A stretch of DNA of 17,818 nt from Candidatus Heimdallarchaeota archaeon. Lineage in GTDB: Archaea; Asgardarchaeota; Heimdallarchaeia; JABLTI01. This document shows positions 3,992-8,951 of the stretch, one piece after another (the stretch's first letter is position 1; every line of letters starts with the position of its first letter). Made by a program: the position numbers and the translations under genes. Below the pieces are notes generated by a model that was not told the origin of the DNA, did no database searches, and was given only the letters and a program-made list of their open reading frames with translations. Where the stretch lies: assembly GCA_030614005.1 (NCBI GenBank), contig JAUWKS010000065.1, positions 1-17,818 of the forward strand, given 5' to 3'.

Positions 3992-4786
3992 TTGGTAAAA
4001 ATAACACAAAGAATTTTAGACTTAATCTCTTTAGATGGGAAAATTGCTGTTGTAACAGGTGCTGCTTCAGGTATTGGATTTGCTACTGCCAAACTTCTTG
4101 CAGAAGCAGGCGCTACTATAGCTCTAATTGATATTAATGAATCAGCAGGTGGAAAAGCCGTTAAGCAAATTGAAGATTCAGGTGGAAAAGCACAATATTT
4201 CAATTGCAATGTTACTTCAAATACTGAATGTAGAGAAACAGCAAAAAAAATCCATAAGGAATTTGGTAAAATAGATATTCTCTTCAATAATGCAGGTGTG
4301 ATACGCCGCAAGAATGTTCTAGACTTAGAAGAAGCTGATTGGGATTTAACTGTTAATGTTAACATGAAAGCAATTTACTTGCTCTCTCGTTATGTTATAC
4401 CTATTATGATTGAAGAAGGGAAAAGTGGGAGCATTATTAATACAGGTTCAGGATGGTCTCTCAAAGGTGGACCAGATGCTGTAGCCTATTGTGCTGCAAA
4501 AGGGGGAGTCTTAAATATGACTCGAGCAATGGCTATTGATCATGGTAAGCAAGGCATTCGTGTTAATTGTGTCTGTCCAGGAGACATCGACACCCCTCTT
4601 CTAAGAGGCGAAGCAAAACAACTGGGGGTCAATGAAGAAGAATTTTTGAAAGAAGCAGCTGATCGTCCACTCAATCGTGTTGGTATTCCAGAAGATGTTG
4701 CATTAGCTGTCCTATTTCTCGCAAGTGACCTTTCGAAGTGGGTTACTGGCACATTCTTACTTGTCGACGGCGGAGGGTTAGCCTAA
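3992..4786 (+). CDS. Classical short-chain dehydrogenase/reductase, probably NAD(H)-preferring
   Basis: TGAASGIG, NNAG, catalytic S (NTGS) and YCAAK, NCVCPG. Acidic residue after beta-2 (LIDIN). TTG start. Confidence 0.92.
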   Translation: MVKITQRILDLISLDGKIAVVTGAASGIGFATAKLLAEAGATIALIDINESAGGKAVKQIEDSGGKAQYFNCNVTSNTECRETAKKIHKEFGKIDILFNNAGVIRRKNVLDLEEADWDLTVNVNMKAIYLLSRYVIPIMIEEGKSGSIINTGSGWSLKGGPDAVAYCAAKGGVLNMTRAMAIDHGKQGIRVNCVCPGDIDTPLLRGEAKQLGVNEEEFLKEAADRPLNRVGIPEDVALAVLFLASDLSKWVTGTFLLVDGGGLA

Positions 4787-4825
4787 TTTAGTAGCTGAAA
4801 ATTATTATTGGTGGTATGAATCATT

Positions 4826-6232
4826 ATGGAAGAAAAGAAAAAATTTGTTCATCCTTATATTCCAAATTCTGTTCCAGAAATTAAAGCAAAAATGTTGAAA
4901 GAGATTGGTGTTAAGGATATTGATAGCCTATATGAAGACATTCCTGAGAGTTTAAAGTTTAAAGGTGAATTGAATTTACCTAAACCAATGCTGTCAGAGT
5001 ATGCCTTGGAAAGGCATGTAATGCAAATATTGGCAAAAAATCAAACCTGTCAAGAAAACCTTAGTTTCTTAGGAGGAGATTGCTGGCAACACCATGTTCC
5101 TGCAATTTGTGATGAAGTTAATCGTCGTTCTGAATTTTTAACTGCTTATGCCGGAGAACCTTATGAGGATCATGGAAGATTTCAATCACTATTTGAATAT
5201 GCTAGCATGATGGGTGAGCTATTAGAAATGGATGTTGTAAATGTCCCAACCTACGATTGGGGACAAGCAGCTAGTACAGCAATTAGAATGGCAGGTCGAA
5301 TTACAAGCCGAAATGAAATTTTAATTGCAAAGAGTATTTCCCCCGACAGGCTCAAGATTATCAGTAATTATTGTAATCCTGTTGTATCCATTAAACTAGT
5401 TGAATACGATTTGAAAACAGGACAGCTTGATCTTGATGATTTACAGGCAAAAATATCATCAAAAACAGCTGGCATCTATTTTGAAAATCCTTCCCATCTT
5501 GGAACTATTGATGGTCAAGGGCAAATCATTTCAGATATTGCTCACAAGAATGGTGCCTTATGTATTGTAGGTACTGACCCAATATCCTTAGGGGTATTAA
5601 CACCGCCAATAAATTATGGAGCAGATATCGTTTGTGGTGATGTGCAATCATTAGGCATCCATATGCAATATGGAGGAGGATTAGCAGGATATATTGCTAC
5701 TCGAGATGAAGAACAATATGTAATGGAATATCCATCACGTCTTTTTGGTATTACTCATACTTCAGTAGAAGGTGAATGGGGATTTGGTGACGTTACATAT
5801 GAGAGAACTTCTTTTCATGACAGAGTGGATGGGAAAGAATTCATTGGCACATGTTCAGCTTTGTGGGGGATTACTGCCGGAGTATACTTAGCATTAGCAG
5901 GACCTCAAGGCATGCAAGAATTGGGACAACTAATTTTACAGAAATCGCAATATGCGATGAAACGACTATCAGAGATTAAAGGTGTAAAAATACCATTCCC
6001 TAATTCTCCGCATTTCAAGGAGTTTGTTGTTGATTTCAAGGAATCCAATAAAACGGTAAAACAAGTGAACAAATCTTTACTCAAAAAAGGGATTTTTGGC
6101 GGTAAAGATATCTCTGCAGAATTTCAAGAATTAGGAAATTGTGCAGTCTATTGTATAACAGAGATACACACAATGGAAGATATTGATAGATTGGTTCAAG
6201 CACTTGACGAATGTTTGAATAAGGAGAAATGA
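4826..6232 (+). CDS. gcvPA: Glycine decarboxylase P-protein alpha-subunit (GcvPA)-like, divergent subfamily
   Basis: HPYIPNS...MLKEIG, SFLG, RSEFLTAY, LFEY.SM..EL..MDV.N, GADIVCGD...LG, GIFGGKD...EL, TE.HT.EDID.L all align with GcvPA. Several signature motifs are altered (see findings). Confidence 0.85.
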   Translation: MEEKKKFVHPYIPNSVPEIKAKMLKEIGVKDIDSLYEDIPESLKFKGELNLPKPMLSEYALERHVMQILAKNQTCQENLSFLGGDCWQHHVPAICDEVNRRSEFLTAYAGEPYEDHGRFQSLFEYASMMGELLEMDVVNVPTYDWGQAASTAIRMAGRITSRNEILIAKSISPDRLKIISNYCNPVVSIKLVEYDLKTGQLDLDDLQAKISSKTAGIYFENPSHLGTIDGQGQIISDIAHKNGALCIVGTDPISLGVLTPPINYGADIVCGDVQSLGIHMQYGGGLAGYIATRDEEQYVMEYPSRLFGITHTSVEGEWGFGDVTYERTSFHDRVDGKEFIGTCSALWGITAGVYLALAGPQGMQELGQLILQKSQYAMKRLSEIKGVKIPFPNSPHFKEFVVDFKESNKTVKQVNKSLLKKGIFGGKDISAEFQELGNCAVYCITEIHTMEDIDRLVQALDECLNKEK

Positions 6233-7812: not shown

Positions 7813-7835
7813 GTTTAGAAAAAGGACGGTATAAT

Positions 7836-8951
7836 TTGAAAAAAATAGGTCTAATAGTAAACCCCATTGCTGGTATGGGAGGTACAGTGGGTCTTAAAGG
7901 AACTGATGGAAAAGCTATCCTTGAGAAAGCTAAACGTTTAGGATCAAAACCACAATCAGCAAAGCGAACAAAAGAAACCCTTGAACGACTCACCTTCCTT
8001 AAAAATGATTTTGAATTGATAACATATCCTGGTGAAATGGGAGAACGAATAGCAAAGGAATGTGGATTTGAACCAAAAGTAATTGGATCAATAAAAACCA
8101 CAGAAACAACTGCCACTGATACAATTCAAGCTGCAAAAGAAATAAGCGCTCTGAAAGTTGACCTGCTATTATTTGCAGGCGGAGATGGAACTGCAAGAGA
8201 TATCTACAATGCTATTAGAAATAAAACAGTAGTTCTAGGAATTCCAACAGGTGTGAAGATACAATCTGCTGTTTTTGCAAGTAATCCTATGAAAGGAGGG
8301 GATTTGGTAGCACTATTTCTTCAAGGGAAAATTAAGGAAACTAAAGAAGCAGAAGTAATGGATATAGATGAAGAAGCTTTCAGAACAGGCTTTGTTTCAG
8401 CAAAATTATATGGTTACTTGACGATTCCATATGAAAAACAACACGTTCAAAGAATAAAATCGGGTAGCTCAACAAATGAAAGATATGCTCAAGAAGCAAT
8501 TGCTCAAGACATTATAGAAAATATGGATGATGAATATTACTATATTATTGGTCCCGGCACAACTACACGACCGATAATGGAGAGGTTAAAATTGGACTTT
8601 ACTTTATTGGGAGTAGATCTCATCTTGGAAAAAAAACTAGTTGAGAAGGATCTTAGTGAACAAAAAATTCTAACGTACATTACTGGAAAAAGAACGAAAA
8701 TTGTTGTAACTCCAATAGGAGGACAGGGATATATATTTGGCAGGGGAAATCAGCAAATAAGTTCTAAAGTAATTAGAGAAGTTGGAAAGGATAATATAAT
8801 TATTGTAGCTACAAAACAGAAAATAAACTCACTAAATGGTCAACCTTTCTTAACTGATACTGGAGATAAGGAAATTAATCAATTGCTGAGTGAACATGTT
8901 ATTGTTATAACGGGATATCATAATAAAGTAGTGTATCGTATTAGCTATTGA
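7836..8951 (+). CDS. ATP-NAD kinase/AcoX-like family protein
   Basis: IGLIVNPIAGMGG.VGLKGTDG, GGDGTARD, GIPTGVK, GGQGYIFGRGNQQIS. TTG start 23 nt after the gcvPB-like stop, consistent with one operon. Confidence 0.85.
   Translation: MKKIGLIVNPIAGMGGTVGLKGTDGKAILEKAKRLGSKPQSAKRTKETLERLTFLKNDFELITYPGEMGERIAKECGFEPKVIGSIKTTETTATDTIQAAKEISALKVDLLLFAGGDGTARDIYNAIRNKTVVLGIPTGVKIQSAVFASNPMKGGDLVALFLQGKIKETKEAEVMDIDEEAFRTGFVSAKLYGYLTIPYEKQHVQRIKSGSSTNERYAQEAIAQDIIENMDDEYYYIIGPGTTTRPIMERLKLDFTLLGVDLILEKKLVEKDLSEQKILTYITGKRTKIVVTPIGGQGYIFGRGNQQISSKVIREVGKDNIIIVATKQKINSLNGQPFLTDTGDKEINQLLSEHVIVITGYHNKVVYRISY

Follow-up and report, generated by a model that had tools for sequence, protein, structure and literature searches.

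A conserved gene cassette of Asgard archaea and sediment bacteria encodes a rebuilt relative of the two-subunit glycine decarboxylase

We examined a 17,818-nucleotide stretch of DNA (contig JAUWKS010000065.1 of assembly GCA_030614005.1; hereafter "the window") from a Heimdall-type Asgard archaeon. It contains a cassette of four co-directional open reading frames (ORFs) on the + strand, separated by gaps of only 39, 29, and 23 nucleotides. The cassette encodes a short-chain dehydrogenase/reductase (SDR), two proteins related to the subunits of the pyridoxal 5'-phosphate (PLP)-dependent glycine decarboxylase (P-protein), and an AcoX-like protein. We call the two subunits PA' and PB' (together P'). 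An earlier inspection of the letters and ORFs (the sequence-only reading) had reported these four linked genes with the same gaps, and the ORF coordinates agree. The genes are:

3992-4786, + strand: SDR-A, a classical short-chain dehydrogenase with a TTG start (Pfam: adh_short/adh_short_C2)
4826-6232, + strand: PA', a divergent alpha subunit of the two-subunit P-protein (GcvPA-like)
6262-7812, + strand: PB', a divergent PLP-binding beta subunit (GcvPB-like)
7836-8951, + strand: AcoX', 371 residues with a TTG start, COG3199/AcoX-type (Pfam: NAD_kinase and NAD_kinase_C)

The host genome is 3.6 Mb and 90% complete. The archaeal genes for Gar1 and SRP19 adjoin the cassette, and the stretch is present in marine-sediment and cold-seep metagenomes. 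The GC content at third codon positions (GC3) of the four genes is 0.20-0.24, against a genome norm of 0.24 ± 0.03, and hence nothing in their composition betrays a recent transfer. The window is devoid of gcvT, gcvH, and lpd genes, all of which are encoded elsewhere in the same genome.

The cassette is a real and conserved enzyme module whose closest known relative is the two-subunit P-protein, and it is mislabelled as glycine cleavage. Both subunits are homologous to the Thermus P-protein 1WYT (EC 1.4.4.2; chain A, E-value 1e-63; chain B, E-value 2e-90) and share its fold and its division into alpha and beta chains. The PLP anchors K290 (Schiff base), H190 (stacking), and D263 (ring nitrogen) are invariant in PB' and canonical PB, and the CTMK motif is retained as well. 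In contrast to 1WYT-type P-proteins, however, the tyrosine loop, the lipoamide loop, and the SAHGTNP, DGAN, TNPNT, and APTxYF motifs are all rewritten. The principal segments are:

5147-5176, + strand: YAGEPYEDHG, the substrate loop of PA', replacing YTPYQPExSQG
5801-5854, + strand: ERTSFHDRVDGKEFIGTC, the mobile (lipoamide-channel) loop of PA', replacing REQHIRRxKATSNIC with a two-residue insertion
6823-6852, + strand: FSHPSDAAAP of PB', with the stacking His190 kept and the flanking GTNP changed to PSDA
7120-7137, + strand: NLHKTF of PB', with the Schiff-base Lys290, invariant in PB' and canonical PB
7558-7575, + strand: MWSSHH of PB', in the C-terminal domain, replacing APTxYF

In addition, PA' has NVPTYD in place of the canonical NxSMYD, and PB' has QPGGGGQAI, TNPEDTG, and DQANANG.

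The same genome provides the appropriate comparison, since its contig 35 carries a canonical gcvH-gcvPA-gcvPB operon. PA' and PB' are only 36% and 40% identical to these paralogues, and PA' scores 205 bits against the GDC-P domain (Pfam: PF02347), compared with 381 bits for its canonical counterpart. The paralogue reads YTPYQPEVSQG, NASMYD, REQHIRREKATSNIC, QPSAGAHGE, SAHGTNPATA, TNPNTLG, and DGANFNA. It thus has every canonical motif that is missing from PA' and PB', and the contrast is genuine, not the product of a misremembered consensus.

We compared the two groups at type-II sites, that is, positions conserved within each group but different between groups, using 72 canonical PA sequences and 21 canonical Asgard PB sequences. 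PA' has 22 such sites, concentrated in loops 109-119 and 328-341. Six of them fall in the substrate loop (T to A109, P to G110, Q to E111, E to Y113, S to D115, Q to H116), and at each of these the canonical residue is at least 88% conserved among the 72 PA representatives. PB' has 43 type-II sites and shares 72 invariant positions with canonical PB; at MWSSHH the changes are A to M433, P to W434, T to S435, Y to H437, and F to H438. For the roles of the residues we rely on studies of human GLDC (PMC7259800, PMC4767401). Y161 and Y164 of GLDC, which have their equivalents in the first PA' loop, are classed as active-site residues (PMC7259800). The mobile loop of GLDC holds Q366, I381, and C382, with Q366 in the lipoamide channel (PMC4767401), and R373 and K376, in the second loop, are modelled as contacts of the H-protein (PMC7259800). 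The claims of the sequence-only reading on this point hold up well: the rewritten motifs it quoted are all present at verified coordinates, the canonical versions it set against them are those of the genome's own paralogue, the PLP core is kept, and the remodelled pocket it proposed corresponds to segments that map to the active-site tyrosine loop and the mobile loop of the lipoamide channel.

Of seven features characteristic of canonical P-proteins, P' has two (homology and fold; PLP anchors) and lacks five: the alpha tyrosine loop, the alpha lipoamide loop, the beta motifs, the phylogenetic placement, and the linkage to gcvH/gcvT. Could P' then be a degenerating or non-catalytic paralogue, a pseudo-enzyme or a regulatory scaffold? 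The loss of the canonical signature motifs is what one would expect of such a protein. However, PB' is 75-88% identical across two domains of life, all PLP-anchoring residues are kept, the reading frames are intact in all inspected loci, and GC3 is at the genome norm. We regard a loss of catalysis as extremely improbable.

In a tree of 91 full-length PA representatives, the 21 noncanonical sequences form one clade (support 100 in the Shimodaira-Hasegawa-like approximate likelihood ratio test, SH-aLRT; stem 0.41), which branches from within the canonical two-subunit GcvPA diversity. The subunits thus group apart from canonical P-proteins, with strong support, instead of being interspersed among them. 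All noncanonical subclades have in common the signatures Y-x-G-x-x-Y-x-D-x-G in loop 1 and R-T-S-[FY]...K-[DE]-[FYW]-x-G in loop 2. The remaining loop positions vary by subclade, a pattern of sequence variation that would suit a family with several substrates. The PB' sequences that are 75-88% identical come from Heimdall, Hod, and Thor archaea and from KSB1, Desulfobacterales, Aminicenantes, and Zixibacteria, and the AcoX' tree mixes archaeal with bacterial sequences. Among 151 Asgard genomes surveyed, 17 have PB' at 65% identity or more, and two have another subclade at 49-50%.

The neighbouring genes differ from one subclade to another. SDR-A is linked in every locus of the window's subclade, and SDRs are confined to this subclade, in which PA' has 57% identity or more to that of the window. 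Orthologues of SDR-A (55-78% identity) adjoin PA'/PB' in 13 Asgard loci and in Desulfobacterales, Aminicenantes, and KSB1. The related loci with SDR-PA'-PB'-AcoX' also include records titled Clostridium hydrogeniformans DSM 21757 (L131) and Anaerovorax odorimutans (L102). Most relatives have five genes, in the order SDR-B, SDR-A, PA', PB', AcoX'. The neighbourhood comparison that the sequence-only reading had called for therefore shows SDR and AcoX linkage to be conserved across domains. The host genome, 90% complete, has no SDR-B orthologue, and a tblastn search finds no remnant 5' of SDR-A; positions 3392-3991 of the window, where most Asgard relatives hold SDR-B, are 600 nucleotides of non-coding DNA. 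In the sister subclade of Loki type, a 2,4-diaminopentanoate-dehydrogenase-like gene (DAP_DH_C family) lies directly upstream of PA'-PB'-AcoX' and is accompanied by an amino-acid ABC importer of the LIV type; genes for an EamA transporter and an aldehyde:ferredoxin oxidoreductase are close at hand (L033 13015-15366 and L034 11261-11980, in genomes G143 and G037). Other sister subclades have M20/M24 peptidases, an aminotransferase, or, together with a binding protein of the peptide/opine type, a saccharopine-dehydrogenase-like gene. Judged by these contexts, the P' family belongs to the breakdown of imported amino compounds. NagA, NagB, and fucosidases are encoded near one Aminicenantes locus; there is no glycosidase in the window or in the Asgard loci.

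The Loki-type arrangement recalls a known pathway. In ornithine and lysine fermentation, 2,4-diaminopentanoate dehydrogenase acts ahead of a PLP-dependent enzyme that cleaves a C-C bond. There the dehydrogenase yields the keto-amino acid for PLP-dependent cleavage, and the DAP_DH_C gene of the Loki-type subclade would fit a similar division of labour; its cluster may represent a diamino-acid pathway. The PLP enzyme of the cassette derives from the P-protein, unlike OrtAB of the fermentation route, and in the window's subclade SDRs replace the amine dehydrogenase.

SDR-A has all the marks of a classical SDR (Pfam: adh_short, E-value 1e-58): the TGxxxGxG motif (TGAASGIG, 4055-4078), the catalytic serine (in GSGWS), and YxxxK (YCAAK, 4487-4501). 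It also has an aspartate (in IDIN) after strand 2. By the usual SDR rule, an aspartate at this place denotes NAD preference. Its nearest solved chains are 4dqx and the dihydroanticapsin 7-dehydrogenase BacC (5itv). SDR-A aligns with BacC over its full length (E-value 8e-52) with the catalytic YxxxK and the TGxxxGxG motif, and BacC oxidises the hydroxyl of an amino-acid side chain. However, SDR-A scores 186 bits against a BacC cut-off of 525. The likeness is that of SDRs in general, so no substrate can be read from it.

Are PA' and PB' simply a second glycine decarboxylase? Such an isozyme would work with the cell's own GcvH, GcvT, and L-protein, under other conditions or in the glycine-synthase direction. 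Several observations agree with this idea. Against the NCBIfam equivalog models PA' scores 500 bits (GcvPA cut-off 364) and PB' 576 bits (GcvPB cut-off 441); pipelines therefore name them glycine cleavage, as public records do and as the sequence-only reading had foreseen. The PLP core is intact, and the rest of the glycine cleavage system is at hand. In addition to the canonical operon on contig 35, the host genome has two Lpd-like genes, gcvT (contig 36), and, adjoining the gene for serine hydroxymethyltransferase (SHMT) on contig 112, a second gcvH, so that a search for a second, canonical set elsewhere in the genome, as had been proposed, yields a positive answer. Canonical PB is also present in 17 of the 19 Asgard P' carriers. 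Each of 10 P' genomes, drawn from various phyla, also carries a gcvT-gcvH-gcvP cluster at another place. GcvH is found in every P' genome tested, while GcvT was tested only in the 10 non-Asgard genomes. Finally, an AcoX partner is common to loci of canonical gcvP and gcvH, as discussed below.

Other observations speak against an isozyme. Near-invariant canonical residues are replaced, including those of the active-site tyrosine loop (72 PA and 21 PB compared), and the substrate loop varies among subclades, which is unexpected for one tiny substrate. A GcvH or GcvT homologue occurs within approximately 7 kb of P' in none of 101 related loci, where P' is linked instead to SDRs, an amine dehydrogenase, peptidases, and amino-acid importers. 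Every Asgard P' carrier has at least two gcvH copies, and relatives without P' have just as many, so that the copy number lends no support to a use of the lipoyl H-protein by P'. On balance we consider an isozyme quite unlikely. The statement in the sequence-only reading that P' has no T, H, or L partners is true of the locus and untrue of the genome as a whole, since nearly all P' genomes have canonical glycine cleavage genes.

The stretch on contig 35 that holds the canonical operon has two further genes of note. Directly ahead of gcvH-gcvPA-gcvPB, L007 3481-6062 encodes a flavoprotein with 4Fe-4S motifs and a 542-residue protein with Pterin_bind, DUF6513, and PterinBD-DUF4346 domains. The latter may be a pterin-dependent partner of the canonical system.

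We now turn to the fourth gene. AcoX', with its N- and C-terminal NAD kinase domains, its GGDGT motif (8178-8192), and a length of approximately 370 amino acids, is a typical COG3199/AcoX-like protein; GGDGT and other motifs are invariant in a 15-sequence alignment. Homologous protein clusters carry the name ATP-NAD kinase family. The structural model is good (predicted local distance difference test, pLDDT, 87), and its N-terminal half (residues 1-208) has the NADK/DgkB fold (VIA Z ~11 to DgkB, 2qvl, and to NADK, 7qvs). A Foldseek search of AcoX' against the PDB gives no match at an E-value of 0.001 or below, and the VIA match is confined to the N-terminal half. Unlike NAD kinases, AcoX' is approximately 100 residues longer and has no solved relative by sequence. 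AcoX is known from acetoin-dehydrogenase operons, and to our knowledge its role is still unassigned. Our literature search found no characterised COG3199 member, and matches to "AcoX" were mostly to acyl-CoA oxidase. The setting of AcoX' is comparable to that of AcoX in those operons, as its gene too adjoins those for a heteromeric decarboxylase of a lipoyl-linked system.

The COG3199/AcoX family is present in 120 of the 151 Asgard genomes, and the dedicated AcoX' adjoins PB' in 16 of 17 carriers. A second, housekeeping copy in the host genome, 45% identical to AcoX', is convergent to the canonical gcvPB at a distance of 50 nucleotides (contig 35; L007 9533-10696, - strand). In 7 genomes housekeeping AcoX is less than 1 kb away from canonical gcvPB, and in 11 others it is the immediate neighbour of gcvH (G000, G001, G002, G007, G013, G015, G018, G029, G035, G036, G039, G044, G048, G053, G054, G058, G112, and G145). 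This arrangement points to a role, general and as yet undescribed, alongside glycine-cleavage or lipoyl proteins. In Syntrophomonadaceae, a close relative of AcoX' ends a cluster of canonical gcvPA (with REQHIRREKATSNICT), gcvPB, two radical-SAM genes, an LplA/LipB-type ligase, and dihydrolipoamide dehydrogenase (Lpd). Judged by Pfam domains only, the radical-SAM pair resembles LipS1/LipS2 (PMC9585515, PMC10332631). Glycine cleavage, LipS1/LipS2-type lipoylation, and AcoX appear to share one operon there. In two metagenome-assembled Syntrophomonadaceae genomes (L103 106-10646; L109 30-10677), one of the radical-SAM proteins has a BATS domain, and NuoE/NuoF-like genes are present too.

The P'-linked AcoX copies form one clade (84 sequences, support 96), and the Asgard housekeeping copies are basal to it, so that the partnership with AcoX seems to have been inherited from the canonical system. 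The sequence-only reading had placed AcoX in the P' module. Its linkage is indeed conserved; it is not specific to one substrate, as the family also stands beside canonical gcvP, gcvH, and lipoylation genes.

A predicted complex also connects AcoX' with the beta subunit. The median ipSAE for AcoX' with PB' is 0.62, compared with 0.00 for the best control. The mark used for this score was reached by 58 of 80 solved complexes and by 2 of 110 mismatched pairs, counts that hold only roughly here because the alignments for the complex were self-made. Contact agreement among runs is at least 78%, and the pLDDT of the partners at least 80. No similar complex was found among solved structures. The predicted contact involves two segments:

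6862-6930, + strand: docking surface of PB' (strand 203-207, helix 217-223), the predicted interface with AcoX'
8892-8939, + strand: C-terminal hairpin of AcoX' (residues 353-368), predicted to pair with PB'

The predicted interface adjoins the rewritten PB' segments 186-199 and 433-445, and the PB' contact residues are conserved in the PB' clade, with several unlike those of canonical PB. The PB' monomer model is poor (pLDDT 60) and was used for local secondary structure only. The models thus predict that AcoX' docks on PB'.

The kinase fold of AcoX' raises another possibility, namely that AcoX' phosphorylates a vicinal amino alcohol or hydroxy-amino acid, that PA'/PB' is a PLP-dependent phospho-lyase, and that the SDRs act on the carbonyl product or precursor. 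The phospho-lyase routes for aminopropanol, ethanolamine, and 5-hydroxylysine are the model for such a scheme. In its favour are the intact GGDGT and the many invariant motifs of AcoX', the closeness of its predicted contact to the rewritten beta loops, the gain of putative phosphate-binding residues (MWSSHH and K277 in PB'; K337 and H116 in the alpha subunit), and the dehydrogenases in the cassette. However, AcoX-family genes also neighbour canonical gcvPB and gcvH, and in that setting no hydroxyl is available for phosphorylation. Furthermore, one complete Desulfobacterales genome retains of AcoX' only an N-terminal remnant of 70 residues (63% identity), just 3' of an intact PB' (L010 11837-12045, i.e., G151 C1:1279945-1280154), while PA' and both SDRs are intact as well; and AcoX is missing near P' in some subclades. 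Since glycine offers no group to phosphorylate and the Desulfobacterales genome retains only the remnant, a substrate-specific kinase role is improbable, and we hold the kinase-lyase scheme as a whole to be unlikely.

With moderate confidence, we favour the interpretation that PA'/PB' is a P-type PLP enzyme that has been neofunctionalised and acts on an amino compound other than glycine, probably one with a hydroxyl group. The cassette would be self-contained and would encode a neofunctionalised paralogue of the two-subunit glycine decarboxylase that stands apart from canonical P-proteins by its own clade, its lack of gcvH/gcvT clustering, and its dedicated SDR partners. PA'/PB' would form the external aldimine with an amino compound larger and more polar than glycine, and would cleave whichever bond stands perpendicular to the PLP ring. 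As the ancestral chemistry, decarboxylation is the likeliest reaction. The carbanion might then be transferred to lipoyl-GcvH, to give an aldehyde and ammonia upon hydrolysis, or might simply be protonated to an amine; within this interpretation we give the two fates equal weight, each somewhat short of an even chance. NAD-type SDR-A, with SDR-B in relatives, would interconvert hydroxyl and carbonyl groups on the substrate or the product. AcoX' may be a generic accessory protein of P-type enzymes that came from the canonical system, rather than a substrate-specific enzyme, with its C-terminal hairpin docked on the edge strand of the PLP domain of PB'. It is tempting to go further and to regard AcoX/COG3199 as an unrecognised accessory subunit of P-type (and perhaps E1-type) decarboxylases in lipoyl-linked systems, with P'-AcoX'-SDR carrying out a lipoyl-GcvH-dependent oxidative decarboxylation of a non-glycine amino acid directly to aldehyde, CO2, and ammonia, although we find this combined scheme rather doubtful. 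If true, it would be an undescribed route of amino-acid catabolism spread horizontally among anaerobic sediment archaea and bacteria.

Several points weigh against the interpretation of P' as an enzyme for a non-glycine substrate. The NCBIfam equivalog scores are above their cut-offs. Canonical P occurs in nearly all P' genomes tested and GcvH in all of them, so reliance on the glycine cleavage partners is possible. The basic residues R327, R333, and K337 are kept in the channel loop of PA', which makes the loss of H-protein docking only putative. PLP enzymes switch reaction type easily, and decarboxylation is to that extent an assumption. The complex score is a model score, obtained from self-made alignments with PB' in the absence of PA'. 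The window lacks SDR-B, which most Asgard relatives carry. Finally, our literature search returned no biochemical work on any family member and no paper on the divergent P' clade. The non-glycine decarboxylation proposed in the sequence-only reading thus gains from the separate clade and the rebuilt loops and stays conjectural with regard to the substrate; the checks it had called for all turned out favourably, and its interpretation overall is partly supported.

Thousands of public genes that are named GcvPA or GcvPB fall in the rebuilt clade, among them genes on which metabolic reconstructions of Asgard archaea, Bathyarchaeia, and many sediment bacteria draw. It is probably a mistake to score them as glycine cleavage or to assign them to the reductive glycine pathway. 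Identification of the substrate would add a second type of reaction to the group-I (glycine decarboxylase) PLP fold. For AcoX, its association with gcvH, gcvP, and genes of lipoylation and the docking predicted here offer a first testable handle.

The remainder of the window and the broader searches add little. Longer P' homologues are canonical T-P fusions or have unannotated extensions, with no informative fusion partner for P', and a search for Rfam families in the window gave no match. Pfam recognises nothing in four ORFs of 246-368 residues (557-1492, - strand; 1832-2938, + strand; 10982-11761, + strand; 13852-14592, - strand). The Asgard cassettes are flanked by unrelated housekeeping genes, which give no hint to the substrate. 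In the window the other neighbours are likewise ordinary: a YNCE-like beta-propeller fragment, the Gar1 and SRP19 genes mentioned above, HypA, DegV, BacA/UppP, a membrane protein of the Na/Ca-exchanger type, and a PMT_2 glycosyltransferase.

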